A DNA stretch of 64,000 bases from Candidatus Thorarchaeota archaeon (GTDB lineage Archaea > Asgardarchaeota > Lokiarchaeia > Sigyniarchaeales > SOKP01): positions 2,409 to 66,408 of the forward strand of contig JBHLRJ010000003.1 of the NCBI GenBank assembly GCA_048882645.1. The letters are read 5' to 3'. The position numbers and the translations under genes were made by a program. Position 1 is the first letter of the stretch. Each line of letters opens with the position of its first letter. Below, piece by piece: positions 258 through 63,670 of the stretch. The notes beneath the pieces were generated by a model. That model was not told where the DNA came from. It saw only the letters and a list, made by a program, of their open reading frames with translations, and made no database searches.

Positions 258-1483
258 CCCATAAGGATAAATAGTACTAAATAGCTCCCTAAAGCTGTAA
301 CAAATAAATTTACCCCAACAGCTCCAATAAATCCCGCAATCCCATACGCCGTAAAAACTATTCCATAGTTTGGCCCTAAATTTTTTGATCCGAAAAGATC
401 AGCTGTTGCGGTTGGAAAAAGACTAAAGTTCCCCCCAAAATTAAAATAAATCGCACATGTCATAATCAAAAAGTATATTTCATTGAAATTAGTGGTGAAG
501 TAGAATAATAACAGAATTGCTTGGAAAGAAAACATCAATAGCATAGCTTTTTGATATGTTATTAAATCAGCCATCTTACCCCACACTATACGACCTAAAC
601 CATTAAAAAGTGCTGCTAAGCTCCCTATTAGGACAAAATCGGATGTACCAATAATGTAAATGTAATTTTCAGATGCATCAACGGTTTTAGCAAACGCAGC
701 ATAAGACCCAATTACCATCAATCCAGAAATCGCACTTAATATAAAAGTTATCCATAGCATCCAAAATTGTGGTAATTTTATCATCTTATTACGTTCAAAT
801 TCTATACCTGAGATTCCACTTTCCTCAGAAGGAGGTGGCGGTATCCAACCTTCAGGTTTCCAGCCTTCAGGCGGATTACTTAACGTAAAGGCACCTACTA
901 TTACCAAAACGAGATAAATAACTCCTAAAACAATGAACATTGGTGGAATATTAGGAGCGATAGTTGCTCTAAAATTAACCGCATCAGTTTCTAGTCCTGT
1001 AGGATTCGCAAGAGCTTTAATTACAAAATTGAAAATAAACGAGCCAGCTCCGAAACCTGCCACAGCAATACCATTTATTAAACCTTTCTTGTCTGGAAAC
1101 CATTTACCTGCAGAAGCTATAGGGCACACATATCCAAAACCAATTCCTGCCCCGAAAATAACACCATAAGTTATCAACAATCCTATGAAAGTTGTCATAA
1201 ATGCTGATAATATGACGCCGCTTCCTATTAAAATACCTCCAAGTATAGCGATATTTCGAGGTCCATATTTTTGTTGTAATTTTCCTGCGAAAATCATAGT
1301 GACGGCAAACGATAACAATCCTATACCAAATATGTAAACTGTCAATTCTCTCACTTCATATAAGTATGGGCTGATAAAAATAGTAAGTGTACCCCATGAA
1401 TAAATAGTACCCAAGGCTAACTGAATCATTATCGCACCAATAACAACAATCCAACGGTTTCTAACTTTATTCTCTACAGACAT
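200..1483 (-). CDS. MFS transporter, oxalate/formate antiporter (OFA)-like
   Basis: Multiple hydrophobic segments. The N-terminal RWIVVIGAIMIQLALGTIYSWG pattern is typical of OFA-type MFS. ATG at 1483 (MSVENK) is preferred over the TTG at 1522 used by the ORF track. Confidence 0.7.
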   Translation of the reverse strand: MSVENKVRNRWIVVIGAIMIQLALGTIYSWGTLTIFISPYLYEVRELTVYIFGIGLLSFAVTMIFAGKLQQKYGPRNIAILGGILIGSGVILSAFMTTFIGLLITYGVIFGAGIGFGYVCPIASAGKWFPDKKGLINGIAVAGFGAGSFIFNFVIKALANPTGLETDAVNFRATIAPNIPPMFIVLGVIYLVLVIVGAFTLSNPPEGWKPEGWIPPPPSEESGISGIEFERNKMIKLPQFWMLWITFILSAISGLMVIGSYAAFAKTVDASENYIYIIGTSDFVLIGSLAALFNGLGRIVWGKMADLITYQKAMLLMFSFQAILLLFYFTTNFNEIYFLIMTCAIYFNFGGNFSLFPTATADLFGSKNLGPNYGIVFTAYGIAGFIGAVGVNLFVTALGSYLVLFILMGYMSVMAVIMILLIKPPKK

Positions 1484-1651
1484 TATTATATCAATCTTAC
1501 GTATTACTAGTATTTTATTCAAATTATTTGAAGGTTAAAAAATTACTATTAATAATTTAGAAAAAAAAAGCTAATTTGTATACCTTCTTAATAATTGCTT
1601 TATATGGTTTATTTATTTTTTCTTAAAAAAATCCTAGCTGAGGAAAATATT

Positions 1652-2653
1652 CTATTTCTCTTCAAATTTTTTCATAATCTCTTGTCTTCGCTTCTCTAAT
1701 CGTTGCATTCTGTTAATCTCTTGCTCACGAAGTTCTGGTTTTAAATATTTCAAGTCATCCATAACTTTCATGGCACCTTCTTGCATTCTCGAAAGCACTT
1801 TTTGTTTCTCTTCTGGATCTAGTTGATATAACATTTTATAATATCTTTCCATACTCTCTTCAGGATCTTGAGGGATTCTTCCAGACAATAATCCTCCTTC
1901 TACTTTAAGAGTTATACCAGTAATAAAACTGCTTGCATCTTCAGCTAGAAACAATGCTGCTTGGGCTATATCTTCTGGTAATCCTGCACGCCTAATAGGT
2001 TGCAAGTTTGCTAGATTTTCTTCCATTAGTTCCCCAAATTTTACAGCTGCTTTGGGTGATAAACCATAAGCTTGACCAAAGATACCTGTCATAATACCTC
2101 CAGGCGCAATTGCATTTGCTCTTATTCCGAAAGCTCCCAATTCTACAGCAGCGATTCTCGTAAGCTGGACAATTCCTGCTTTAGAAAGTGAATAAGGTAA
2201 TGTACCCATCCCATGTTGAAAAGCCGCGACTGAACTAGTAGTTATGAAACACCCTGAACCTTGTTCTTTCATGATTGGAATCGAGTATTTCATACATAAG
2301 AAAGCGGCACGTAGATGGATAGCTACAGTATGATCAAACTCCTCAGTGGGAACCTCCTCAATTGCACCAACAGGACCAGGATTACCAGCATTTGAAAAGA
2401 CTATATCAAGTCGTCCAAATTTTTTAATAACAAGATCAATAGCTTTTTTTATATCAACCTCTTGAGATACATCTGTATGAATGTAAACTGCGTTAGGACC
2501 AAGTTCACTCGCAATTTTTTTTCCCATTTCATCCCATATGTCGGCTAATATGACCCCTTTACATCCTTCTTCAATGAACAGCTTCGATGTTGCTCTTCCT
2601 ATTCCACCAGCTGCTCCTGTTATTAAGGCTACTTTATTATCTAATTTTCCCAT
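1652..2653 (-). CDS. short-chain dehydrogenase/reductase (SDR) with a ~75-aa helical C-terminal extension
   Basis: TGAAGGIGRAT Rossmann motif, NAG motif and YSLSKAG (YxxxK) catalytic motif. Tandem paralogue of 2736-3731. Confidence 0.85.
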   Translation of the reverse strand: MGKLDNKVALITGAAGGIGRATSKLFIEEGCKGVILADIWDEMGKKIASELGPNAVYIHTDVSQEVDIKKAIDLVIKKFGRLDIVFSNAGNPGPVGAIEEVPTEEFDHTVAIHLRAAFLCMKYSIPIMKEQGSGCFITTSSVAAFQHGMGTLPYSLSKAGIVQLTRIAAVELGAFGIRANAIAPGGIMTGIFGQAYGLSPKAAVKFGELMEENLANLQPIRRAGLPEDIAQAALFLAEDASSFITGITLKVEGGLLSGRIPQDPEESMERYYKMLYQLDPEEKQKVLSRMQEGAMKVMDDLKYLKPELREQEINRMQRLEKRRQEIMKKFEEK

Positions 2654-2735
2654 AGTTCAACAAAATGAATGATTTTTTAATACTTTGATGATTAAAAAGA
2701 AGGTTGAATAGAATTCTAGATCGATTTATCTCAAT

Positions 2736-3731
2736 TTATTTTTCTAGATTCAAGACTCTATTCCTTATTTTAGCTAATTTCATCATTCTTTTTATTTCCT
2801 TATCCCGAATTTTTGGCTTTAAATATTTCATTCTTTCCAGTGTTTTCTGAGCTCCTTCCTCTGCCATGTCTGCTATTATCTTTTGATCTTCCGAATCCAA
2901 CTGACTAATCATATTAAACCATCTTTCTGTAGATTCTTCAGGATCTTGAGGGATTCTTCCAGATAACAGTCCTCCATCTACTTTAAGAGTTATTCCAGTA
3001 ATAAAACTACTAGAATTACTTGCTAAAAATAAAGCCGCTTGAGCAATATCTACTGGCAAACCGGAACGCCTAATTGCTTGATCTCCAGAAATAGAATCTT
3101 TCATTAATTTACCCAGTTTTTCAGCTCCTTCACGAGATAACCCCATGCCCTGTCCAAAGATTCCAGTAGCTATAAAACCCGGTGCAATTGCATTGGCTCT
3201 AATTCCATAAGCTCCTAATTCCACAGCGGCAAGACGTGCAAGATGGATTAATCCTGCTTTCGAAATTGAATAGGCTAATCCTCCCATTCCCTGTTGAAAA
3301 CCCGCCACAGAACTTGTAAATATAAAGCATCCTGAACCTTGTTTTTTCATGATTAGTATTGAATGTTTCATAAATAAAAATGCAGCTCGAAGATGGATAG
3401 CAATTGTTTGATCAAATTCATCTGTAGGGATTTCTTCAATTACTCCTCCAGGGCCAGGATTTCCTGCATTTGAAAATACAATGTCAAGCCTTCCAAACTT
3501 TTCAACAGTTATCTCAATAACTTTTATGATGTCATTTTCCTGAGACACATCTGCATGGATATATAATGCATTTGGACCAAGTTCTTTAGCAGTTTTTTCA
3601 CCCATCTCATCCCAAATATCTACCATTACAACACCCTTAGCTCCTTCTTGAATAAAAAGTTTTGATGTTGCTCTACCTATACCGCCAGCAGCACCTGTTA
3701 TAAGTGCCACTTTCCCATCTAATTTTCCCAT
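2736..3731 (-). CDS. short-chain dehydrogenase/reductase (SDR), tandem paralogue
   Basis: TGAAGGIGRAT, NAG and YSISKAG motifs. Roughly two thirds of residues are identical to 1652-2653 by eye, including the C-terminal extension (PQDPEES.ER ... KYLKP). Confidence 0.85.
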   Translation of the reverse strand: MGKLDGKVALITGAAGGIGRATSKLFIQEGAKGVVMVDIWDEMGEKTAKELGPNALYIHADVSQENDIIKVIEITVEKFGRLDIVFSNAGNPGPGGVIEEIPTDEFDQTIAIHLRAAFLFMKHSILIMKKQGSGCFIFTSSVAGFQQGMGGLAYSISKAGLIHLARLAAVELGAYGIRANAIAPGFIATGIFGQGMGLSREGAEKLGKLMKDSISGDQAIRRSGLPVDIAQAALFLASNSSSFITGITLKVDGGLLSGRIPQDPEESTERWFNMISQLDSEDQKIIADMAEEGAQKTLERMKYLKPKIRDKEIKRMMKLAKIRNRVLNLEK

Positions 3732-3821
3732 AGTTTACAAAAAATGAATAATCAATTAATATTTTAATCATAAGACTACATTTGTTATAAGAATATTAGA
3801 TGGCATTTATTATCAAAATAT

Positions 3822-4460
3822 ATGGATTCAGAGAATAAAGATAATTCGACTAAATTAGATAAACGAGAAAAGATTCAGTTTTTTGATCTCTTTTTTGGCA
3901 TATTTAATATATTTGTAATGGTGATCATGATACTATTAACACAAAAAAATTTATTACTCATAATTTTAGCCTATAGTTTTACCGTGTTAATGTTAATTGG
4001 ATTATTTATGACTTATAAGGTACGAAATCCGTTTTATATATATTTTGTGTACGGTCCATTGCTCTGTGGTGCTTTTTATGCATTGCCCAGGCTAATATTA
4101 ATTCCATTGGAGAATTTTAGTGCTGGAATCTTCGATTATATTATTTTCATTTGTGCTATTCTAGAAATTGGATATCTTATACAAATCACTAAAAATTCAA
4201 CCTTTCTGGAAAATTTTGGACGGATCGCAAATATTGGATATTCTTGGAGGACTGGAAGAGCACAATATGACGCTACCCTTCAATATGCTATTATGGATCC
4301 AGAAGCACTGCAGAAACAGCAAGAGCAAGCTCTCGAACAGGAATTAAGAGAGAAGCGCAAAAAAAAAGATTACAACAAGAGATTTCAAAGAAATTCTATT
4401 ATTGCAATATGTGTTATCTGTGTTATTGGATTTTACATATCTTATCTAATAGGACTTTAA
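3822..4460 (+). CDS. membrane protein, unknown function
   Basis: Several hydrophobic helices, then a charged coiled-coil-like segment (QKQQEQALEQELREKRKKK) and a final TM helix. Confidence 0.5.
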   Translation: MDSENKDNSTKLDKREKIQFFDLFFGIFNIFVMVIMILLTQKNLLLIILAYSFTVLMLIGLFMTYKVRNPFYIYFVYGPLLCGAFYALPRLILIPLENFSAGIFDYIIFICAILEIGYLIQITKNSTFLENFGRIANIGYSWRTGRAQYDATLQYAIMDPEALQKQQEQALEQELREKRKKKDYNKRFQRNSIIAICVICVIGFYISYLIGL

Positions 4461-19884: not shown

Positions 19885-19927
19885 TTGACAAAATATAGAT
19901 TAAATTATTGGTTGAAAAGTGATAAAT

Positions 19928-20788
19928 ATGAATGGTTTAATAATCTTGTTTTCCCAAACAGGTGGAACAGAAAAAATTGCGTTAAAAATCCGAGAAGGTA
20001 TCATAAATAGTGGAAATAAATGTGAAATCATTAAAATAAAGAGAGCCAAACTAGCGAATTTATCCCATTACGATTTAATTGGTATTGGCACCCCGACTTT
20101 CTATTATAGGGAACCAATAAATGTCCGAAATTTCATTCAGAATGTGGCAAAGTCGGATGGAAAACATGTTTACTTATTTTGTACACATGGAAGTGTAATT
20201 GGGAATACATTTTACTATATGGAAGAAGAATTAAAAAAGAAGGGATATACAATAATAGGGACTTTTGACTCTTATTCTGCATCTTCTTTACAATTCTATC
20301 CTGAAATCATGCATACTATTAATCACCCTGATGAAATAGAGCTTGAAGAAGCATATTCTTTTGGAAAAAGTATATGTGATACTAGTTTGAGAATAAAAAA
20401 TGGAGAAACAAGCCTAATTCCAAAATTTGAACTGATTGATGATACTTGGTGGGCCCAAGATTCCAAAAAATTAACTCCTGAACTTCTGAGGAATATCTTT
20501 CCTAAATTTAAAATTAATGCTGAGCTATGTACTAAATGCCTTGCATGTCAAGATGAATGCCCTACTGATGCCATCGATATTGAAGCACACCCTCCTGAAA
20601 TTCAAAAAGAATCTTGCATATTTTGTGGATACTGTGAAAAGTTATGCCCAGAAGGAGCAATTGAAACAGATTGGAAATTCATGAGAATTGCATCTAAAGG
20701 AAATTTAGAAAAATATGTTCAAGAGCTTAAAAAAGCAGAAGAAGAGGGAAAATTCCGACCTTATATTGATTACGAAAAAATAACTTAA
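19928..20788 (+). CDS. flavodoxin-like domain fused to a 2x[4Fe-4S] ferredoxin domain
   Basis: [15 protein letters not shown] flavodoxin-type N-terminus. [12 protein letters not shown] and [12 protein letters not shown] cluster motifs. ATG at 19928 (GTG at 19919 is possible). Confidence 0.8.
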
Positions 20789-22937: not shown

Positions 22938-23732
22938 TTAATTTTGAAGTTGTTTAATATGTTTTTCAATATTTTTTATAGTTGAAGGAGGAAGTTCACT
23001 TAGCGATTTTCCTTGAAACCTATTAAAACAACTACAACAAAATCTTAATTCATTTACTCTAAATTTACCTAAGGTATGTCTTCTTCCAGGTTCTTCTAAC
23101 CATGCTCCGCAGTTAACACATTTCTTAAAAAGATTAATTCTTCTATTAAGTTGAATTCTTGTTGATAAACCCAAATCCCTTCTTACGTTATTTATATTAC
23201 ATCTGATTCTTTGCATATCAGTTTGAAAAAGAGAACAGAGAACCATATCAAACAATTCATTAACATTTCTTCCCGTTTTATGAGATACTTCAATGAATCC
23301 ATCCAAATTGAAGTCTCTTGATAGTTGAAGCCCTTCTGAATAAGAGACATCTCTACAGGTTTCCAAATCTGAGTTGGTTCCCGCTAAGATTATAGGTATA
23401 TTTCCTGCATTTTCTCTAACAACCTGTAACCACTTGGGGAAATTTTCCAGTGTAAACTTATTTGTAATATCATAGAGAAAAATTGCACTATCGGTGCCCC
23501 TACAGTATTGAGAAAGTAAGAACCTAAATCGTTCTTCGCCCCCAAAATCCCAAATTTGTATTTTTGCCTTTTTTCCTTCAAAACTAACAGTCTTGGAGTA
23601 AAAATCAACTCCGATAGTTAATCCTAATCCTTCTGTATAAAATCCTGTTATATATCGGATTGTTAAGGAGGCTTTTGGGACAGAAGAATCCCCTAACAAC
23701 ATAACCTTAAAAGTATAATCATAATCTGTCAT
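22938..23732 (-). CDS. Rab-like small GTPase with an atypical P-loop and a C-terminal CxxC...CCxC domain
   Basis: G1 GDSSVPKA (no GK[ST]), G3 WDFGGEE, G4 TNSD, G5 SHKTG. C-terminal CVNCGAW...FCCSCF. Confidence 0.7.
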   Translation of the reverse strand: MTDYDYTFKVMLLGDSSVPKASLTIRYITGFYTEGLGLTIGVDFYSKTVSFEGKKAKIQIWDFGGEERFRFLLSQYCRGTDSAIFLYDITNKFTLENFPKWLQVVRENAGNIPIILAGTNSDLETCRDVSYSEGLQLSRDFNLDGFIEVSHKTGRNVNELFDMVLCSLFQTDMQRIRCNINNVRRDLGLSTRIQLNRRINLFKKCVNCGAWLEEPGRRHTLGKFRVNELRFCCSCFNRFQGKSLSELPPSTIKNIEKHIKQLQN

Positions 23733-24324: not shown

Positions 24325-25383
24325 CTAGACCAAAGTCTCAAAAATAGTTTTCGCTAGGTATGGGAATGATATTGTTTGATTTTTATACTCGGATAGAATT
24401 CTTTTGACTTCCTCAAATCTGTTTTTCAAGAGATTATGAAATTCATTAGATTTTAAGAAATCGTTAAACAACTCTGCGAATTCCAATTTAAACTTGTCTA
24501 TTCGCATTTCCTCTTTATCAAATAAATTGATCTCCCGTTTGAGTTCATAAATATGATTATAAAGATCCTCCCCAAAGATAGAGATATCATTTTGATAAGG
24601 TATCCCTTTTATTTCTCCTAATTGAAATGATTCACCTGTAGAGTTAATTAAAGATATTTGGTTTAAGCTCTCCCATGTTAAATTTGGTCCTAAAATGGGG
24701 ATAATTGGTATTTGATTGTCTAGTGCCAACTGTAGTTCAAATTTACATGGTTCAGAGTGTAATGAATTTTCAGTAGCAAAAAATAATAAGATATGACTTA
24801 ATGGGACGTATTTTCTCATAAATTCTATAAAGTTCATACCACCCTGAATCGCTTCTTCACTATAATATACTTTATAAATTTCTTCTCGCTCAGAAAGAAA
24901 TTTAGATGTATCCAGTATATTGATCAAATTGCTCTCAAAATCCTTTTCAGCATGACTACAAAACACAGTAATTGCATCATGTCTCCTGCAATAATCAAAT
25001 ATTTCAACTATATTGTTCTTTACAACCTGTGTCCACTCACCTTCCCATGGATTCCCATCTAAATGGATCTCATTTACACTTTTTAAATGCCACAATTTCA
25101 TAGGAAGTCCAGTTAATCTGTTACTCGTTAATCCGAGAAATTGTATCTTTTCGAGATTCATTATCGAATCTGGAAGGTTGGGTAGCTGATTATATGATAA
25201 GTTTAATATTTTTAGCGACTTCAGTTTATGAAAAGATTCTGGAAGTTTCTTAATTTTGTTGAAATATAGATTCAAATTTATCAAAAATCGTAAATTACCA
25301 AAACTTTCCGGCAACTGTTCTAATTTATTATTACTACAATCTAACTCTTCAAGTGTGATCAAATCTCCAAAACAATCTGGCAA
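24325..25383 (-). CDS. LRR + TIR-like domain protein (downstream part of an in-frame TAA-interrupted GTPase-LRR-TIR gene)
   Basis: LRR units (LxxLxLxxNxLxxLP) continue in register from the upstream ORF. TIR-like region ITVFCSHAEKDF ... ILLFFATENSLHSEPCKFELQLA. No ATG; the first codon is a TTG directly after the TAA. Confidence 0.7.
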   Translation of the reverse strand: MPDCFGDLITLEELDCSNNKLEQLPESFGNLRFLINLNLYFNKIKKLPESFHKLKSLKILNLSYNQLPNLPDSIMNLEKIQFLGLTSNRLTGLPMKLWHLKSVNEIHLDGNPWEGEWTQVVKNNIVEIFDYCRRHDAITVFCSHAEKDFESNLINILDTSKFLSEREEIYKVYYSEEAIQGGMNFIEFMRKYVPLSHILLFFATENSLHSEPCKFELQLALDNQIPIIPILGPNLTWESLNQISLINSTGESFQLGEIKGIPYQNDISIFGEDLYNHIYELKREINLFDKEEMRIDKFKLEFAELFNDFLKSNEFHNLLKNRFEEVKRILSEYKNQTISFPYLAKTIFETLV

Positions 25384-26490
25384 TTATTCTAATCGATTTT
25401 CAGCTAAGTCAAGTTGTTTTAGAGATTTTAATTGACAGACTACTTCTGGAAGATGAATAAAATGGTTTCCATTCAAGTTTAGATAATCAAGCTTCTCTAA
25501 TCTATTCAGAGAATCAGGAAGATCTGATATCCTATTTCCCCTTAAGGATAAATATTCGAGCAATTCCAACTTCCCTATTGATGAAGATAAATTCTCTAAA
25601 TTGTTTTTAGTAAGACCTAAAATTTTAAGATTTTTAATTGTAAAGACAAATTCTGGAATACTTGATATTAAATTATCATAAATCCTCAATTCTTCTAGTG
25701 AATTAAGTTTTGTTAGAATATCGGGGATTGCCTTTAATCCACATCTAAATAAGCCGAGACCTTTTACTTGATCTCCATCGATAATTACCCCAAAAGGTTC
25801 TGAAGATAATTTAGTGACTACTGGGATTTCTTGTTTTATTAATTTCTCTAGTTCTTCAAGAACTCTTGCTTGTTCTTGTTCAATTCCCCATCTATTCTGC
25901 TTAATGATTTGTTCAATTTCCATTGTAGGACGAAAACCAACTTCATCCTCGCTAATTTTATAATCAATTCCTTTACTTTTTAAAATTTGAGATATTAATT
26001 CCTGGAAAAGCATATCAACGTTTTTTCCTGTTTTTGCAGAGGTTTCAACATATGGGCAAGACAATTTATTAGCGACTGATATTGCATCCGACTCTGACAC
26101 TTTTCGATCATCTACTAAATCACTTTTGTTTCCTGCTAGAACTATTGGAATCCGACCTGTAGTTTGATATAACTCATCAAGCCAAGCAGTAACGCTTAAG
26201 TTAAAGGTATTAGCATCAGCAAGATCAAATACGACAATGGCTGCAGAAGCTCCCCTGAAAAACGTAGTTTTTGGTAATTTTAAACGTTCTTGGCCTGCCA
26301 TATCCCATAAGGTAAGATTAAGTACTAGATCTCCCACTTCTATTTGTTTGATAGAAAAATCAGCCCCGATAGTTAGAATATAGGATTCTTTGAAATGACG
26401 ATCTACATACCTCCTAATCAGACTGGTCTTCCCAACTCCAAAATCTCCTATTAACACAATTTTAAAGACTAAAGTGGTTTTTTCAGACAT
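25384..26490 (-). CDS. Ras/Rab-like (Roc-type) small GTPase fused to LRRs
   Basis: G1 GDFGVGKTS, G3 WDMAGQE, G4 NKSD, G5 SAKTG. A pre-LRR motif EQARVLEELEKLIKQEIP is followed by 5-6 LRRs. Ends at TAA 25384-25386 inside an LRR. Confidence 0.8.
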   Translation of the reverse strand: MSEKTTLVFKIVLIGDFGVGKTSLIRRYVDRHFKESYILTIGADFSIKQIEVGDLVLNLTLWDMAGQERLKLPKTTFFRGASAAIVVFDLADANTFNLSVTAWLDELYQTTGRIPIVLAGNKSDLVDDRKVSESDAISVANKLSCPYVETSAKTGKNVDMLFQELISQILKSKGIDYKISEDEVGFRPTMEIEQIIKQNRWGIEQEQARVLEELEKLIKQEIPVVTKLSSEPFGVIIDGDQVKGLGLFRCGLKAIPDILTKLNSLEELRIYDNLISSIPEFVFTIKNLKILGLTKNNLENLSSSIGKLELLEYLSLRGNRISDLPDSLNRLEKLDYLNLNGNHFIHLPEVVCQLKSLKQLDLAENRLE

Positions 26491-53851: not shown

Positions 53852-55264
53852 CTATTTATTTTCTTTTAGAAGTTGGGCACATTTGGAAAAATATTCAACT
53901 GAATTAATTCGACCGCTACTTAAATCTTGAAATAATTCAGCAAACTGATCCCAAACTTCTTCAAACTGTTCTTTAAAACCTTCAGAATCTATATAGTTAT
54001 TTACCGACGTCTTAAAATTTACCCGTTCTCTATCAATTTTTGCTTGCTCTGGTTCAAATAAATGAATCTCCCGTTTCAATTTCAGGATATAATCATAAAG
54101 TTTCTGACAGAATGCTACGAAATCTTCTTGCTCAAATTCATAACCTAATTCTCTGCTTAAATTCAATTCTTTTAACTCTTTCCAATCTATATCTGGTCCT
54201 TTTATTGGTAAAATCTGAATATTATGTTTTCGAGCAAGCTCGAGTTCATGTTTACAATCCTCTGAATTATATATTGATTTGTTGGAAGCGAAAAACAATA
54301 CAAGCTGACACTTTGGTAATTTTTCATCCATGAAATCATCGATATTTCCAGCTAAATCTTCTTCACAGTAGAAAACTTTATAGATTTCATCCTGTTTTTG
54401 TAAATATTCTGAAATCTCTTTAATGTGAGAAATTTCAAAATCAACAACTGCATGACTTAGAAAAACGTTGATTGAAGCTCTCTGCCTACAATAATCAAGG
54501 ATAGTAAGAATATCTCTATCAGCAATTTCTTTCCATTCACCTTCCCATGGATTATGCCATAAAAAAAGAGTCTCTAAATTTTTTAATTTCCATAGTGTAT
54601 TTGGGAGTGATGTTAAAAGATTTTCTTCTATTAACAATTTTTTAAGAGATGTTAGGGTAGTTATTGCGTCTGGAAGGGAGGTAAATTGATTACTACCCAA
54701 ATCTAACTCTACGAGTGGAGTGAGATTGCCTAATGAATTAGGAATAGATTTTAATTCATTATGATTTAAGTTTAAGCTTTCAAGTGACTTTAGATTACCT
54801 ATTGACTCAGGGAGGGACCGTAACCGATTTTGCCTTAGGAATAACGCGTGGAGCGATTTTAATTGGCGTATAGAATTTGAGAGTGAAACTAATTGATTGT
54901 CATTCATGAAAAGTACTTGAAGGGATAACAATTTTGTTACTGGCTCCGGGAAAACAGAAAATTGATTTTCTGATAAATCTAGAAATTGGAGTGATTGCAG
55001 ATTCGCCAAAGATTCAGGAAGATTCGTCAGTTTGTTCCTAATTAAAAATAGTTTTTGAAGGGAATACAGATTCCCAATTTCTTCTGGAATGAATGTTAAT
55101 TTACAATCATATAAACTTAATGTTTTAACCATATCATCTTCGATTTTTACACCAATCCACAATGCACTTAAATCTTCTAACTTTGGAATCTGTCTGCCAA
55201 TCAATTCCTCTAATGCCATTAAAACTTGTGCTTGTTCAGGCTTTATCCCCCATTTATTACTCAT
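53852..55264 (-). CDS. LRR + TIR-like domain protein (uninterrupted paralogue of 24325-26490 minus the GTPase)
   Basis: Pre-LRR motif EQAQVLMALEELIGRQIP and about 9 LRRs. TIR-like INVFLSHAVVDF ... LVLFFASNKSIYNSEDCKHELELA. Confidence 0.8.
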   Translation of the reverse strand: MSNKWGIKPEQAQVLMALEELIGRQIPKLEDLSALWIGVKIEDDMVKTLSLYDCKLTFIPEEIGNLYSLQKLFLIRNKLTNLPESLANLQSLQFLDLSENQFSVFPEPVTKLLSLQVLFMNDNQLVSLSNSIRQLKSLHALFLRQNRLRSLPESIGNLKSLESLNLNHNELKSIPNSLGNLTPLVELDLGSNQFTSLPDAITTLTSLKKLLIEENLLTSLPNTLWKLKNLETLFLWHNPWEGEWKEIADRDILTILDYCRQRASINVFLSHAVVDFEISHIKEISEYLQKQDEIYKVFYCEEDLAGNIDDFMDEKLPKCQLVLFFASNKSIYNSEDCKHELELARKHNIQILPIKGPDIDWKELKELNLSRELGYEFEQEDFVAFCQKLYDYILKLKREIHLFEPEQAKIDRERVNFKTSVNNYIDSEGFKEQFEEVWDQFAELFQDLSSGRINSVEYFSKCAQLLKENK

Positions 55265-55560
55265 ATAACCACATCTAGCCTATTTTATTTACCTTAGCAT
55301 AGTCAAATACAATTAATATATCTATTTCTTTTAAAATATCAAAATCCACTAATCATCGAAACCATAGAAAAATAGATAACAATAACTCAAATGCTCTTAT
55401 AAAGTTAAAAAAGAAGATGGAAAAAAAAAATGCCCCCACATTTCCCTTGAGTTATAATGAACTAAAGGATTTCATTTATCACCCTAGCAGCTTAAAACCT
55501 CTCTTTATGAAGAATGGAGATTAAACCTTTAGTTACAAGAATCCAAAGTTAAGAAAGAAC

Positions 55561-56417: not shown

Positions 56418-56538
56418 AAAATAACACTTTGTTTTCTACAAAGTGGAATTAAGAATTTTTTTTTCATTATTTTATTTTCGTATTCAACTGTCATTTCTTA
56501 TAACAATTAGATTTTTTCTCAGATAAAACCAATTTTTT

Positions 56539-59500
56539 TTACATTGCATCTTTAAATATCTCATTAGACATTAAATTTCCCATTAATAAACTTTCAAATC
56601 CTATTCTAACCTCCAGATTTTTTAACGGTTTCACTAAAGCCCTGAGTTTTGGCATGTCATGCAAAAGATGGTTGGAAACTTGAATGAATTTTAGGTTTTT
56701 TAGATTTTTCATTGAACTAGGCAGAGTCTCTATTTTGGTTTCTGCCATACGCAAGTATGCAAGACTGGTTAAATTCCCTATGGATTCAGGAAGCGTTTTA
56801 AGTGGACATGCTTCAATAGATAATTGATTAAGATGTATTAAATTTCCAATGGTATCTGGAAGAGATGTCAAGGGATTCCAGCTTAAACTTAAATTTTCAA
56901 GAGATTTTAAGTTCCCTATTGAATTAGGAAGCTGAGTTATCTGGTTTATACTGTTAATGTAGAGCTTTTTCAGTGAAGTTAAATTGCCTATAGAATTTGG
57001 AAGTGCCGTTAAATGATTATAATTTATTTCTAATTGTTCTAGAGATGTTAGTTCCCCTATTGAATCAGGTAATGAAGTGATCCCAGCATAAGCTAAACCG
57101 ATAGCTTCCAAATTTTTAAAAATTCCTATCTCTTCTGGAAGAGTCTGAAAATTGTTATGATTCAAGCATAATCTGATTATCAATGGGAAATCCAAGATTA
57201 TATCAAAAATCTTTCTCACTTGCTCATCTTTTAATTTACAATATGCTCCACTAAAAAATATTAACTGATCGTCTTTCAGTGAAAAGGATAATCTCTTTCC
57301 ACTCGTCAACGATTTTACATATTTATGGGACATATATGAAAAGGAATGGTGTGAAATATCCTCAATTTCTCTCAATCTAAGGATTTCTTTGGGAAATAAA
57401 TTCCAAAATTTCTCTCTGTCCAAATGTTTTAACTGATCTTTCTCCGCAAGGATTTCTCTCATTTTTTGTTTACCTTCATAATCCGTTTCTATAATAATTG
57501 GTATGGATGCTAGATCCTCGATTTCCTTTAAAAACTTTATATATCCTTCCCTATACTGCTTATTTTTAAATACAGGTAATATTTGTAAAACAGAGGAAGA
57601 AAAGTTTAAACTGGGGTTTTTGAATAACGGAATTAATCTACTTGGACCCATCTTCTTAAGCAATTCTGACCCAATAGCGTTTCGAAATGCAAACATGTCT
57701 TTTTCAGTAAGAATGGCTTCCAATCCCGCTTCAGGGATGTTAGAACATTTGCTAATCTCCTCAACAGTATCCCACTTTCTTCTATCTAAACCACTTTCTC
57801 CTTCGACTCTATACCATTTATAAAAGAATACAACATCTTCAACACTTGGCTCAGTAATATGGAGCTTTAGTACAAGGTTCCAAAATTGAGGTGAAGGAAG
57901 TCCTTCAAGGAAATTATTCTCCAAAAATGTTAAAAAATGCTGGATTTTTTGAGGACTTAGTTTTCCTTTAAGATTTCGTAAAAATATACACAGATTTTCT
58001 ATATAAAAAGGATACCAATCCATAAATGGCACATTTGAAGCAAACTTATTTTTCGTGTGATCATATTCTATCTTATTTGCGATTGCCGTAAATGCGTTCT
58101 TCATTGTAAGAGTAAGGTTTATATTATTCGCGATAAATACACATTCTTCGGCAGTAAGATATTCGAATAACCTTAGAGCAAATATAATATCTAATAATTC
58201 AACATTGTACTGTCGCAAAATAGAAAAGACACCTTCCCCTAATTCAATTGCATGAAATTCCCCCACATATCTACATATCCCCATTGCATTTCCGAAAAGG
58301 GTTCTATTACCTTTCTCTCTAGAGAGCTGGTATACAATGTTTTCTACTAATATTTTTCCAGTATCTTCTGGAATTAATACATTAATTTCTTTAACATTGA
58401 GAATCTTTAAAGTTTCAATTTCAATTTTTTGGGAGATTTCCCGTTCATTCTTATCTTCTTCACTAAATTCTACTTCAATTATTAGTAGACTTTTGTCCGC
58501 AATTTCCTTTAACTCTGCTATACCTTGAGTTCTTAATAAGTCTATTCCTTTACGCGCTGGATTCCCAAAGTCGGCAAAAAATACCGAATAAGCTACAAGA
58601 TGAAGTTTGTAATTAAAAAGCTCAGAATCGTAAAATTTCAGTAAATTCTCTGCAACATTATATACAAATTCCTCATAGTTCTTTTCGCTCAAATGATTCT
58701 TTACTCGAATTCCCCCCTTTCTTTTGTATTCTTGATAATCTATACTCCGTCTATGCCATTTAGTAAATCTTATATAGGAGTAAAACACCAATGCTTCCAA
58801 AGAAAAGCTAAAGATATACTTGTCTTTATGTTCTAATCCTGAAATAAGGATATTGGTAATTCTTTCCCTGAAATCCAGATCATTCTGAATATAATAGTCA
58901 TTAAAACCCTGCTCTAAATAAAGATAAATAAGCGAGTAGATATCACTTCCCATGAAAATACCCTCAATCAATTTTGGATTCCGAAATTTTGCTAATTTTT
59001 TTACAGTTGTCATTACGGGAATAGCTTGTTCGTTTTTTTTCAAAAATTGAATTTTTCTCCCTTGGCTTCTTAATGCTTCTAAATATGCGAGGAATTCGTT
59101 ATGTAATAATTCTATAAAACTCTCTATTAGCCATTTACTTGGAGTTTCAAATAATGATTCTAATTCATATTCATTTAATAAAGGGACATAACCCTCCAAT
59201 ATAAGAAATTTGATTACAGTTGGATGTCTACTCTCGAGTCTTTTCGCAATCTCTTCCTTGAAAACAGCTCTGGCCACCGGGTCTCCTGCTTGTGTAAGTT
59301 CCTTCAGTAGCACAAATGCTAAATTTCTATGGAGTATTCTAGTATCGTAATTATTTTCTGCCCATGCCTGCATATTAGAACAATGTCCCCAAAATTCAGT
59401 TTCAGGAGGAATGTCATATGTGTATACATCTTGTCCCTCTAAAGAATGATCCAATGTTTCGGCAGCTTCATCGATAGAATCAATCTCTTCATAATCTTCT

Positions 59501-59628
59501 AACACCTCCGTTGGAATTTCTAAAAGTAAATATTTACATTGTCTGAAAAACTTTCCATTCACATAGATATTCGTCTCATATCCTTCTAATTTGAGGGTAA
59601 GATATTCATTAATCTTAAATTCCGCCAT
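56539..59628 (-). CDS. large protein (~1029 aa) with a C-terminal LRR domain
   Basis: C-terminal ~200 aa has regular LxxLxxLxLxxNxLxxLPxSIGNL repeats; the N-terminal ~800 aa is unrecognised. ATG at 59628 is preferred over GTG at 59637. Confidence 0.75.
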   Translation of the reverse strand: MAEFKINEYLTLKLEGYETNIYVNGKFFRQCKYLLLEIPTEVLEDYEEIDSIDEAAETLDHSLEGQDVYTYDIPPETEFWGHCSNMQAWAENNYDTRILHRNLAFVLLKELTQAGDPVARAVFKEEIAKRLESRHPTVIKFLILEGYVPLLNEYELESLFETPSKWLIESFIELLHNEFLAYLEALRSQGRKIQFLKKNEQAIPVMTTVKKLAKFRNPKLIEGIFMGSDIYSLIYLYLEQGFNDYYIQNDLDFRERITNILISGLEHKDKYIFSFSLEALVFYSYIRFTKWHRRSIDYQEYKRKGGIRVKNHLSEKNYEEFVYNVAENLLKFYDSELFNYKLHLVAYSVFFADFGNPARKGIDLLRTQGIAELKEIADKSLLIIEVEFSEEDKNEREISQKIEIETLKILNVKEINVLIPEDTGKILVENIVYQLSREKGNRTLFGNAMGICRYVGEFHAIELGEGVFSILRQYNVELLDIIFALRLFEYLTAEECVFIANNINLTLTMKNAFTAIANKIEYDHTKNKFASNVPFMDWYPFYIENLCIFLRNLKGKLSPQKIQHFLTFLENNFLEGLPSPQFWNLVLKLHITEPSVEDVVFFYKWYRVEGESGLDRRKWDTVEEISKCSNIPEAGLEAILTEKDMFAFRNAIGSELLKKMGPSRLIPLFKNPSLNFSSSVLQILPVFKNKQYREGYIKFLKEIEDLASIPIIIETDYEGKQKMREILAEKDQLKHLDREKFWNLFPKEILRLREIEDISHHSFSYMSHKYVKSLTSGKRLSFSLKDDQLIFFSGAYCKLKDEQVRKIFDIILDFPLIIRLCLNHNNFQTLPEEIGIFKNLEAIGLAYAGITSLPDSIGELTSLEQLEINYNHLTALPNSIGNLTSLKKLYINSINQITQLPNSIGNLKSLENLSLSWNPLTSLPDTIGNLIHLNQLSIEACPLKTLPESIGNLTSLAYLRMAETKIETLPSSMKNLKNLKFIQVSNHLLHDMPKLRALVKPLKNLEVRIGFESLLMGNLMSNEIFKDAM

Positions 59629-59866
59629 TAAGAACACTCGTGATTATAGTCAAAAAATAATTTTTGCCTTTATTATAAAAACACAAGATATATCGTTTAA
59701 AAACTTTTATCCCCTCTGTTCCTTACCTTGTTTACAAGATGATTAATTTCAGGTTTCTAATTGTTGAATTTTTATTGGTATGCATGATCTCTTTTAAAGG
59801 AATAAACTTTTAAAAATAAATGGAATCTTAATAACATAAGACAAGACTTTTATAGGAAGAATATCC

Positions 59867-59950
59867 ATGACTAAATGTGCCTTCTGTGGTGAAAATGTAG
59901 GCTTTTTACCTTTCAAGTGCCGTTATTGCGGGAAAAATTTTTGTGCTTAA
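59867..59950 (+). CDS. 27-aa ORF encoding the first five Cys ligands of an AN1-type zinc finger, ending at an in-frame TAA
   Basis: Own translation: MTKCAFCGENVGFLPFKCRYCGKNFCA*. Same frame as 59957-62278. Confidence 0.5.
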   Translation: MTKCAFCGENVGFLPFKCRYCGKNFCA

Positions 59951-59956
59951 CATAGA

Positions 59957-62278
59957 ATGCCCGAAAATCATGATTGTTCCCAGGATTTAGCACTTGAAAA
60001 AATAAAAGATGAGGTAATTAAGAAAGTTTTAGATGAAGAAGATTTTCCGGAATTAATTAAAGGAGTAAAATTAGTGGAAAAAACAGTCAGCTTTCAAGGT
60101 ACTTTCTCAGGAGAGACTTTAATGTTAAAGGTGATAAAGGGGCATTCCTATGAAATACATTACCACATTAATCGACCATATTTTCAAAAGTTTGGTATTT
60201 TGATAAGTGATGAGAAAGTTTCGATGCAAGGAACAAGTCCAGTCTCTCAAGATGGTAAATTTTTATATAGTGCTTTAAGCACGGGAATGATAGGGGTTAA
60301 TACAAGGTACTTAGCTTCCCTTAATGATTTTCCACAGTTATTTGTGGATATTATCATATACGATCTAGGATCAAAAACAGAACTTACAGATAGATTTAAG
60401 AATATTCCAATTATACCGGAAGAAAAGCAAATTATCATTGAATTAGAGAGTTATCTAAATGAAACAATCCCAGTTGTTGAGAAATTGGGAGAAAATACGT
60501 TTGGAATTATAATTAAAAATAACCATGTAAAACATATAGATTTACACAGTAAGGGTTTGGAAGAGATACCTAGTTCAATTTGGGAATTAAAACAATTGAA
60601 AACACTTGATTTAAGTTCTAATCGTTTTAAATCTTTACCAGAGATTCCTAAATGGCATGATTCACTTCAAGAACTAAACTTAAGTCATAATCTATATCTA
60701 CAAGAGTTACCTAAAACAATAGATTCTTTAAAAGCACTCAAAAAATTAAATTTGAGTCATCGTAAATCTTTAAGTAGATTACCTTTAAAATTCAAGGATA
60801 TAGGCAAACCTTTTGGGTTAGACAGTGTGGATTTGAGCCACTGTAATATCTCTATAATCGTCGATTTAGAAAACTCGACAAATATTTTTACCAAATCACT
60901 AGATTTTAGAGGTAATCCAATTAGCCTTAAAGAAAGAAAAAGAATTTACCAATGGGACTTTCCAAAGTTATTCATTGAACCAATCTTATTTTTTATAGAA
61001 AAAGAGAGCAAATTGATTGAAGATACTCCAGTTGCTACATTACGAGATATCATTAAAAATGATCTTGAGGAGGATAATAGAGTTGTTGCTCTTTATATTA
61101 TTATCAATAATTATTTCAGTGAAGAGATACCACTCATTAGAGATATAATTATACAAGACGAATCAACATTAGTAATTACAACTATGTTTAAACTGCTGAA
61201 GAAAATTAATAATAAGAAAAGTGATGTCCTCATAGAGGAGATCCTTATGAGATATTCAAGAGTGTATCATATTAGTGAAGATGAGGTTCAATTCTTCATT
61301 GATTTAGAGGCAGAGTTAGTTGAGGAAGGGGATTATGAAATTATAAAAATTGGACATTATACGGATTATATATATTACGGACCTCTTCAGCCCTCAATTC
61401 AGGATCTAGGGATTGAATATGATCAAATCATGGAGTATTTTGGAAACTCAGACATTTTTAGGAATCTTTTTTGGGTTGATGATGGAAATGTAAAACTTCT
61501 TGTCGTTGGAGGATTTTTAAATAAATTTCTGCCTGATTCAATTGGACATCTTAAAAATTTAGAATTTCTTGACTTGAGGGGAAGTAGGGTAAAGTTTTTA
61601 CCTAAATCCTTTAAAAATTTGAAAAAGCTTCGAAAATTTTTTGTTGATTGCGGTTTTGACTTCCAAAATTTAGATGAGACGGTAAAAAAATCCATTTTAA
61701 ACAATATTTCCCATAAATTCCATCAACTTGGTATTAGTGATGAGGAAACAAAAGCGTTGGCGTGTTTTGAAATAATTTATGGCCAATTCCTTCAAGTTGA
61801 CCAGATAAATGAAGAATATGCAAATGAATTCGTGTTAAATGATCATAATCAAGTTATTGCTATTAGTATATTTGGTGATATTGAGGATCCTTCTTTAACC
61901 ATCGACAGAAAGATCCCCGATGAAATAATTCTATTCAAGAATCTTGAAGAATTTTTGGTCAACTACAGCATAGTTGAAATTCCAGATTCAATAGGAACTC
62001 TAAAGAATTTAAAGAAGTTGAATCTTGTAGGAAATAAAATTAAATTGCTTCCATATTCACTGAATTCTTTAAAAAATCTTGAAGAATTATATCTTAGTTC
62101 AAATAAACTTAAAACAGTACCAAACAAATTCACGAATCTCCAAAACCTGAAGCGCTTAGAGATAAGCTATAACAAATTGAAATCTGTCCCAGATTTTATA
62201 TTAAGCCTCAAGAAGCTCGAGATTCTTGATCTGAGTAATAATAGAATAGAAGAAATTCCCAATGAAATTATTTATTAG
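59957..62278 (+). CDS. large LRR protein (two LRR blocks); its N-terminus completes the AN1 zinc-finger motif
   Basis: Starts MPENHDC (the H-x5-H-x-C end of AN1, counting the H two codons upstream). Pre-LRR motif EEKQIIIELESYLNETIP. LRR blocks at ~residues 195-330 and ~520-773. Confidence 0.8.
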   Translation: MPENHDCSQDLALEKIKDEVIKKVLDEEDFPELIKGVKLVEKTVSFQGTFSGETLMLKVIKGHSYEIHYHINRPYFQKFGILISDEKVSMQGTSPVSQDGKFLYSALSTGMIGVNTRYLASLNDFPQLFVDIIIYDLGSKTELTDRFKNIPIIPEEKQIIIELESYLNETIPVVEKLGENTFGIIIKNNHVKHIDLHSKGLEEIPSSIWELKQLKTLDLSSNRFKSLPEIPKWHDSLQELNLSHNLYLQELPKTIDSLKALKKLNLSHRKSLSRLPLKFKDIGKPFGLDSVDLSHCNISIIVDLENSTNIFTKSLDFRGNPISLKERKRIYQWDFPKLFIEPILFFIEKESKLIEDTPVATLRDIIKNDLEEDNRVVALYIIINNYFSEEIPLIRDIIIQDESTLVITTMFKLLKKINNKKSDVLIEEILMRYSRVYHISEDEVQFFIDLEAELVEEGDYEIIKIGHYTDYIYYGPLQPSIQDLGIEYDQIMEYFGNSDIFRNLFWVDDGNVKLLVVGGFLNKFLPDSIGHLKNLEFLDLRGSRVKFLPKSFKNLKKLRKFFVDCGFDFQNLDETVKKSILNNISHKFHQLGISDEETKALACFEIIYGQFLQVDQINEEYANEFVLNDHNQVIAISIFGDIEDPSLTIDRKIPDEIILFKNLEEFLVNYSIVEIPDSIGTLKNLKKLNLVGNKIKLLPYSLNSLKNLEELYLSSNKLKTVPNKFTNLQNLKRLEISYNKLKSVPDFILSLKKLEILDLSNNRIEEIPNEIIY

Positions 62279-62358: not shown

Positions 62359-63216
62359 ATGATACAGAGATCTAAAATTACGACGTTTCGTAAGATATTA
62401 ATAATAATTACTCTTAATTATAACTTAATTCAATTAAATTGCTTTTCAAGTGATCTCAAAATTCTAGGTTGGATTGTACTTTTTAGTGTTTTAGGAAGTG
62501 TAGGTGCTATTTTAGCCGCGGCAAGTTTCATTTTATTAAATCAAAAATTCCAAAAGATATTAATATCCATATTGATTTCTTATGCAATTGGTATATTGCT
62601 CACAGCATCTCTTTTTGGATTAATACCTGAAGCAATAGAAGGTTCAGGTGGAGAACCCCATTTCATAATGTTATTTGTTTTAGGTGGTATATTATTTTTT
62701 TTTATCATTGAAAAAATAATTATATGGCGGAACTGTCAAAATGAAGGATGTGAAGTACACAGTGCTGCTGGACCTTTAGTTTTAGTAGGAGATGCATTTC
62801 ATAATTTTACTGATGGAGTTGTTATCGCAGCAGCATTTTTAACTAATTTTTCAATTGGTATTGTTGCGGGAATATCTGTTTTGATACATGAAATCCCTCA
62901 AGAAACTGGAGATTTTGGAATATTATTACATCAAGGATATTCAAGAAAGAAGGCATTGCTTTTTAATATTCTTTCTAGCTTATCAACAATTCCTGCCGCA
63001 ATTATTAGTTTTTACGTATTGGATATTTTTTCTGTATTTGTGCCGTATTTATTAGCCATTTCTGCAGCTAGTTTTATATATATTGCATTAACAGATTTAA
63101 CCCCAGAACTTCACCAAAAAGCTGATGCTAAACACAGTATTCGTCAAATTCTTTTAATTTTTGTGGGCATTTTGACAATGGCAATGGTTATTTTATCTGT
63201 TGGGCATCAACATTAA
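62359..63216 (+). CDS. ZIP family metal (zinc/iron) transporter
   Basis: HNFTDG and HEIPQETGDFGILL signature motifs; about 8 TM helices. Confidence 0.8.
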   Translation: MIQRSKITTFRKILIIITLNYNLIQLNCFSSDLKILGWIVLFSVLGSVGAILAAASFILLNQKFQKILISILISYAIGILLTASLFGLIPEAIEGSGGEPHFIMLFVLGGILFFFIIEKIIIWRNCQNEGCEVHSAAGPLVLVGDAFHNFTDGVVIAAAFLTNFSIGIVAGISVLIHEIPQETGDFGILLHQGYSRKKALLFNILSSLSTIPAAIISFYVLDIFSVFVPYLLAISAASFIYIALTDLTPELHQKADAKHSIRQILLIFVGILTMAMVILSVGHQH

Positions 63217-63244
63217 TGAGAAATACTTTATGAGGAATTAAAAT

Positions 63245-63670
63245 ATGCTAGATATTGATTATAAAATAGTGCGCTACCTAAATAAGAATAAGAAACGAAA
63301 AGTGGGAGAGATTGCTAGACATTTTATGTTAGCCCATTCTACAGTTGGAAGCTCGGTTAAAAGGTTGGAAGAAGAGGATCTAGTTATCTATAAAAGATAT
63401 CAATGGGTTGAACTCACCATAAAAGGTAATAGCATTGCAATTGAATTGTCTCGTCATGCCCATTTGCTTGAATTATTGCTTCATAAGGAATTAGGACTAA
63501 CAGTTGAACAAGCACATCAGGAAAGTGAGAAATTTAATTTACTATTTTCCTGTGATACGATAAATAAAATATGTGAAAAATACAATCATCCTAAAATTTG
63601 CCCATGTGGCGTTGAAATAAATAGTACTCCTAATTGCTTATGTGAAGAAGATTTAAAAGGGCATCTATAG
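63245..63670 (+). CDS. DtxR/MntR family metal-dependent transcription regulator
   Basis: HSTVGSSVKRLEEEDLV...ELTIKGNSIAIELSRHAHLLELLL pattern. Follows the ZIP gene by 28 bp. Confidence 0.7.
   Translation: MLDIDYKIVRYLNKNKKRKVGEIARHFMLAHSTVGSSVKRLEEEDLVIYKRYQWVELTIKGNSIAIELSRHAHLLELLLHKELGLTVEQAHQESEKFNLLFSCDTINKICEKYNHPKICPCGVEINSTPNCLCEEDLKGHL

Follow-up and report, generated by a model that had tools for sequence, protein, structure and literature searches.

A split AN1 motif in front of an LRR gene

The DNA analysed here is a 64,000-nucleotide stretch (the window) of contig JBHLRJ010000003.1 from a Candidatus Thorarchaeota bin (GCA_048882645.1). On its + strand, at 59867 to 62278, lies a gene for a leucine-rich repeat (LRR) protein in which an AN1 zinc-finger motif is interrupted by an in-frame stop codon. 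The frame opens at ATG 59867, runs for 27 codons to a TAA at codon 28 (59948 to 59950), and is then open on to a TAG at 62276 to 62278. The letters around the site read ATG(59867) ACT AAA TGT ... TTT TGT GCT TAA(59948-59950) CAT AGA ATG(59957) CCC GAA AAT CAT GAT TGT. Across the stop, the spacing of the zinc ligands is C4-x2-C7-x10-C18-x2-C21-x4-C26-x2-H29-x5-H35-x-C37, and the TAA occupies the second x between C26 and H29.

With the stop entered as X, the motif (codons 4 to 37; 59876 to 59977, +) matches the Pfam family zf-AN1 (PF01428) at 44.8 bits (E = 1.3e-11), against a gathering cut-off of 27.9 bits. The eight ligands do not lie on one polypeptide, since the TAA parts C4 to C26 from H29 to C37. 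The 27-codon 5' remnant (59867 to 59947, +) contains the first five Cys ligands, as seen by reading and by Pfam, and reaches 25.1 bits by itself, under the cut-off. The N terminus of the open reading frame (ORF) that follows the stop gave no AN1 match in the Pfam scan, and the PF01428 entry is likewise absent from P0001.

This second ORF (59957 to 62278, +; 773 codons) begins at the conserved Met of HRMPENH and is identical to the protein annotated by NCBI as MFW9864725.1, "MAG: LRR domain-containing protein," from Candidatus Thorarchaeota archaeon. It combines a predicted beta-sandwich domain with LRR blocks. Several LRR families of Pfam match the remainder of the protein, with blocks at residues of about 240 to 301 and about 690 to 800 of the 803-codon frame. 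The conserved domain of roughly 100 residues between the AN1 motif and the first LRR (ORF residues 37 to 139; 60065 to 60373, +) is predicted to form a beta-sandwich in an AlphaFold2 model with a mean predicted local distance difference test score (pLDDT) of 64. Its top Foldseek match is 5azw (E = 3e-4; template modelling score [TM] of 0.76 to 0.78 on target length). The best fold matches are GOLD domains of the p24 family. The model is of moderate quality, and numerous generic beta-sandwiches fit it about equally well; a GOLD-like identity for this domain is a weak lead, held with low confidence.

Direct reading found no GGAGG- or GGTG-like run upstream of ATG 59957. About 46 to 59 nucleotides (nt) 5' of ATG 59867, the same kind of reading shows an A/T-rich TATA-like box, TTTTAAAAATAAAT (59808 to 59821, +), which is a probable promoter of the original full-length gene. 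An earlier, sequence-only reading of this DNA had described the TAA inside a continuing frame, the AN1 spacing with the stop at a variable position, the 773-residue ORF starting at the M of HRM, and the lack of a Shine-Dalgarno-like run ahead of ATG 59957. All four descriptions hold when the letters are read and the motif is scored against PF01428.

Orthologues, the stop codon, and the lost 3' end

On sequence grounds, the gene at 59867 to 62278 is an orthologue of a small Asgard-archaeal family whose members carry an AN1 finger, a beta-sandwich, and LRR blocks. Besides the window copy, we identified five distinct intact AN1-LRR proteins (P0002 to P0005 and P0121), all from Asgard bins or metagenomes. 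Two metagenome loci from the Joint Genome Institute (L008 and L009) match the gene of P0002 over the stretches read. A scan of the GTDB representative genomes returned only one full orthologue; the other archaeal AN1 matches are short and cover AN1 only. The sequence-only reading had remarked that an AN1-LRR fusion is unusual, a fair assessment of an architecture that is real and is carried by five intact proteins. We found no description of the AN1-LRR family or of its architecture in the literature, and nothing on topic concerning AN1 proteins or LRR pseudogenes in Asgard archaea.

The closest relative is a gene at 1216 to 3726 of locus L032, from a Promethearchaeota bin (GCA_048940205.1). 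It encodes the 836-residue protein P0121 (MFX1490055.1), which clusters with the window protein at 90% and has an intact AN1 domain (45.5 bits versus PF01428). L032 and window positions 59800 to 62272 are 97.5% identical as DNA, with 61 mismatches and 1 gap, and the codon that stands at the TAA is GAA (Glu). The four further full-length orthologues, P0002 to P0005, are 838 to 858 residues long and 55 to 62% identical; they derive from Hermodarchaeota and Promethearchaeota bins and Logan assemblies, and all contain PF01428 and LRRs. At the position of the stop, three of them have Glu and one (P0003) has Lys. Where the orthologous site was read as DNA (L001, L002, L008, and L009; three distinct sequences), it is GAA CAT AGA ATG CC. 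The comparison with orthologues that had been proposed for this site thus finds Glu (GAA) or Lys in place of the TAA, and the stop is kept in no relative compared. Because L032 and the orthologue sequences read as DNA have GAA, the stop corresponds to a single G-to-T change that arose in the lineage of the window.

The gene also differs from its closest relative at the other end. At 62273 to 62278 (+), DNA alignment with L032 places a deletion junction, where 349 bp of the relative (3625 to 3973) are missing from the window. The missing segment comprises the last 35 codons, encoding one LRR and the tail, together with 247 bp of spacer that lies ahead of a ZIP transporter gene (62359 to 63216), and the junction has at most 1 nt of microhomology. 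Homology to L032 resumes at 62276, so the present TAG stop (62276 to 62278) is former intergenic DNA. P0121 and all of the orthologues run about 35 residues past the shared ...IPNEI, through an extra LRR and a tail that ends in LKL or SKL. An LKL-TGA string that follows the TAG was considered as a leftover of the ...LKL C terminus of the orthologues and was rejected, as it aligns to intergenic DNA 247 bp past the stop of the relative.

Stop codon use, a second interrupted gene, and the neighboring loci

The sequence-only reading had pointed to another TAA inside an LRR gene, which was confirmed. This gene (gene 2; the AN1-LRR gene is gene 1) lies on the - strand at 24325 to 26490, where reading and Pfam reveal a 722-codon Ras/Roc GTPase-LRR frame that the ORF calls divide in two, at 368 and 352 residues. 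The TAA, at 25384 to 25386, sits within an LRR (...LDLAENRLE*LPDCFG...). Only the orthologues of gene 2 are recorded as having a TIR_2 domain (PF13676). The closest relative of this gene, P0122, is intact, 721 residues long, and 94% identical, and has GAA at the site; its locus, L033, belongs to the same Promethearchaeota bin as L032 and is identical in a Logan assembly (L034).

DNA alignment of the second site (25381 to 25386, -) with its surroundings shows GAA TAA TTG in the window, GAA GAA CTC in the relative, and GAA GAA CTT (L035) or GAA AAA CTT (L036) in the outgroups. There are therefore three window-derived substitutions in 6 nt, with runs of 69 and 20 identical bases on either side, and this clustering makes one complex mutational event look likelier than a base-call error. 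The cluster creates both the stop and an adjacent TTG, a possible restart codon. No paralogous donor for the TAATTG cluster was found in the window. The ratio of non-synonymous to synonymous substitution rates (dN/dS) between gene 2 and its relative is 0.16 (0.25 before the stop and 0.09 after it), and amino acid changes, once polarized, are not clearly more numerous in the window copy, which together suggest that the second stop is recent.

By eye, the two interrupted genes share a motif ahead of the first LRR, EEKQIIIELESYLNETIPVVEKLGENTFGIIIKNNHVKHIDL in gene 1 (60419 to 60544) and EQARVLEELEKLIKQEIPVVTKLSSEPFGVIIDGDQVKGLGL in gene 2 (25735 to 25860, -). It looks like a common N-terminal cap module of LRR domains, and comparable sequence seems to precede the later LRR blocks of gene 1 as well, again as judged by eye.

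TAA is the commonest terminator in this DNA. It closes 38 of the 51 non-overlapping window ORFs of at least 100 residues, whereas TAG closes 11 and TGA closes 2. No tRNA or release factor gene lies within the 64-kb window. The ends of the TAA-terminated ORFs look natural, with separate neighboring genes directly after them. Two same-frame ORF pairs, at 11418 and 52833, were considered as further interrupted genes and rejected; each consists of separate neighbors with unrelated domains and a TAA between them. No other domain-continuous same-frame pairs occur in the window, and Pfam scans of about 49 window ORFs revealed no further split domains. The search for TAA-interrupted domains that the sequence-only reading had envisaged for the genome was thus carried out at the scale of the window, where it returned just the two sites, that is, 2 in-frame TAAs in about 50 genes.

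To place these two codons among the other differences between the genomes, we compared the window with L032 and L033 over 17,653 aligned nt, which contain 937 differences (5.3%). Given the spectrum of these differences, and with no selection on substitutions, the aligned coding sequence (13.9 kb) would be expected to contain about 30 nonsense differences. It contains 2, which makes them about 15-fold rarer than expected. TAA is the outcome of about 50% of the mutational routes to a stop. A generally leaky TAA would fit poorly with nonsense changes being purged so strongly. The 1- to 2-nt insertions and deletions relative to L032 and L033 are all intergenic, and differences of the G>T type are symmetric (81 versus 73). 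A flood of G>T artefacts was rejected on the basis of this symmetry. In the 120 nt after each stop, folding scores did not differ significantly from those of shuffled sequences (site 1, z = +0.92; site 2, z = -1.23). Nor do the two stops share a context, which is TAA CAT AGA at site 1 and TAA TTG CCA at site 2. Further, the terminator of gene 2 itself is TAG in the window and TAA in its relative.

The LRR and Ras loci of the two genomes differ by the presence or absence of whole segments. A 3.4-kb segment of the window (56419 to 59800, -), containing a 1,032-residue LRR gene (56539 to 59637) that is divergent from the AN1-LRR gene, is absent from L032, which has about 107 bp in its place; the relative is 91 to 97% identical. 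Homology to L032 begins near 59800, about 67 nt before ATG 59867, and includes the TATA-like box.

Other segments vary in a similar manner. An LRR-TIR gene (53852 to 55264, -) lacks its 5' two-thirds and upstream region in L032 (window 54119 to 55491 versus L032 77 to 123), and a flavodoxin/4Fe-4S ORF (19919 to 20788; segment 19949 to 20798) is present in the window only. The intact 264-residue Ras gene of the window (22938 to 23732) corresponds to a 57-residue remnant in the relative (L033 7261 to 7434). The occurrence of differences of both kinds suggests that gene gain and loss run in both directions.

Several observations on the surrounding DNA are independent of the interrupted frames. 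A ZIP-family zinc transporter and a DtxR-type metal-dependent repressor (62359 to 63670) adjoin the AN1 gene downstream, and this adjacency is probably coincidental. Two tandem paralogous short-chain dehydrogenases of 333 and 331 residues (1652 to 3731, -) have near-identical Pfam profiles. NCBI labels the window bin as Candidatus Thorarchaeota and the bin that is 93 to 97.5% identical to it (GCA_048940205.1) as Promethearchaeota; these labels are separate NCBI phyla, and at least one of them must be wrong.

Origin of the interrupted frame and comparison with known systems

Relative to its intact close orthologue, the AN1-LRR gene has two disabling lesions, the GAA-to-TAA change at codon 28 and the 349-bp 3' deletion. 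The sequence-only reading had offered decay by nonsense mutation and read-through of TAA as its two options. The comparison favors decay: both stops are lineage-specific GAA-to-TAA changes that are absent from relatives 94 to 97.5% identical, gene 1 has in addition lost its 3' end, and the surrounding LRR/Ras loci vary by segment. We consider it likely that a recent G-to-T nonsense mutation and the deletion have left a decaying or truncated allele in an LRR neighborhood of fast turnover, with TAA acting as an ordinary terminator, and we infer that the mutation is real in the cells. Judged by its sequence, it may have become a pseudogene only very recently, or it may persist in use as a truncated allele. 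One change in the window copy removes an otherwise invariant Cys (C299R).

Because TAA is the commonest ordinary terminator here, translation from ATG 59867 would be expected to end after 27 residues, and no AN1 finger could form. Any product would most likely be the 773-residue protein, lacking the AN1 finger and the last LRR and made by restart at ATG 59957. Such a restart may proceed by termination-reinitiation at this conserved ATG, 6 nt past the stop. In prokaryotes, translation is documented to restart at an internal Met that lies shortly after a premature stop (PMC6728339).

Several findings weigh against decay. The dN/dS of gene 1 versus L032 is 0.50 (37 non-synonymous and 18 synonymous changes). 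When amino acid changes were polarized with four outgroups, 8 were derived in the window and 11 in the relative, with 17 ambiguous. There is no frameshift in 773 codons. Since gene 1 looks healthy apart from its two lesions, its decay would have to be very recent, unless the truncated ORF remains in use or the TAA is an error in the consensus.

An error of this kind would make the TAA an artefact of sequencing, assembly, or consensus, or a minor allele in a mixed population, so that most cells would have GAA and a full AN1-LRR protein apart from the 3' deletion. The stop depends on one base of a metagenome-assembled bin, missense changes are not in excess in the gene, and G-to-T is a known type of oxidative-damage error. 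We nevertheless consider an artefact unlikely. The assembly looks clean relative to the closely related bin, as seen from its intergenic 1- to 2-nt indels and symmetric G>T-type differences, the same gene carries an independent structural lesion, and the TAA of gene 2 lies in a cluster of three substitutions, which is not typical of a base-call error. The restart codons bear on a different reading, in which both genes are alive, newly split or truncated, and kept in use either through termination-reinitiation or because near-cognate decoding reads through TAA at a low level. Both TAAs directly precede a possible restart codon, with ATG 6 nt on at site 1 and TTG as the next codon at site 2, a coincidence with a chance of roughly 0.10 x 0.04 as judged post hoc. 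We assign this reading a small chance; if true, it would offer a route by which multidomain signaling proteins of Asgard archaea shed or separate modules.

Useful read-through at both sites, whether programmed or through near-cognate leakiness, would allow full-length AN1-LRR and Ras-LRR-TIR proteins still to be made. Both genes are otherwise intact, gene 2 has its low dN/dS of 0.16 overall and 0.09 past the stop, and the base at +4 of site 1 is C, which in eukaryotes gives the weakest termination context. A low dN/dS, though, reflects the entire time since divergence and so says nothing about the age of the stop. No relative has the stop, even at 94 to 97.5% identity, so neither site is conserved as one of recoding; the contexts of the two differ, with no significant structure after either; and TAA is the main terminator, with nonsense changes strongly purged elsewhere. 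We found no support for the read-through option of the sequence-only reading and regard it as very improbable. Recoding demonstrated in archaea is limited to UGA for selenocysteine (Sec), UAG for pyrrolysine (Pyl), and -1 frameshifting, with no TAA case known (PMC8211752). Genome-wide reassignment of TAA to an amino acid in this lineage is more remote still, with next to no probability, as only the two in-frame TAAs themselves speak for it. The relatives encode Glu with GAA at both sites, in-frame TAAs number only two in about 50 genes, TAA and TAG interchange at the homologous end of gene 2, and reassignment is refuted by the 38 of 51 window ORFs that end in TAA.

The two in-frame TAAs provide no support for TAA recoding in Asgard archaea and are not usable as evidence of a variant code, and their value lies mainly in this negative result. 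The 773-residue coding sequence (CDS) in NCBI is what remains of a gene for an 836-residue AN1-LRR protein, and a flag marking it as disrupted would be preferable. The LRR/Ras/TIR neighborhoods of these archaea turn over quickly even at about 95% genome identity, and the intact AN1-LRR family, which is small and uncharacterized, may deserve notice in work on Asgard signaling proteins.

Among known systems, the premature-stop pseudogenes and truncated alleles of prokaryotes resemble gene 1 in having a single nonsense change versus an intact close orthologue together with a second lesion, here the 3' deletion. They also share its setting, a variable LRR/Ras/TIR cluster with presence/absence differences between near-identical genomes. 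Gene 1 departs from them in having neither a frameshift nor an excess missense load, features that make it at most a very young pseudogene, and NCBI annotates it as a normal 773-residue CDS. With archaeal UGA/Sec and UAG/Pyl recoding it has in common a stop codon within a conserved domain whose reading frame continues past it, but the codon here is TAA, is unconserved, has no downstream element, and is replaced by ordinary Glu in relatives.

Termination-reinitiation (Huber et al. 2019, PMC6728339) offers a parallel in spacing, as the starts 6 nt (site 1) and 0 nt (site 2) past the stops are in the reported range. Unlike coupled genes of operons, the arrangement in the window arose by mutation inside one gene, and no Shine-Dalgarno-like motif stands ahead of either restart codon; restart is only a candidate here. 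Finally, the interrupted motif has the same eight-ligand pattern as AN1-type proteins, including the eukaryotic ZFAND proteins and small archaeal AN1 proteins, and matches their profile significantly across the stop. In the window, however, this motif is split over two ORFs, neither of which reaches the Pfam threshold, and the intact members of the family differ from other AN1-type proteins in fusing the finger to a beta-sandwich and LRR blocks.

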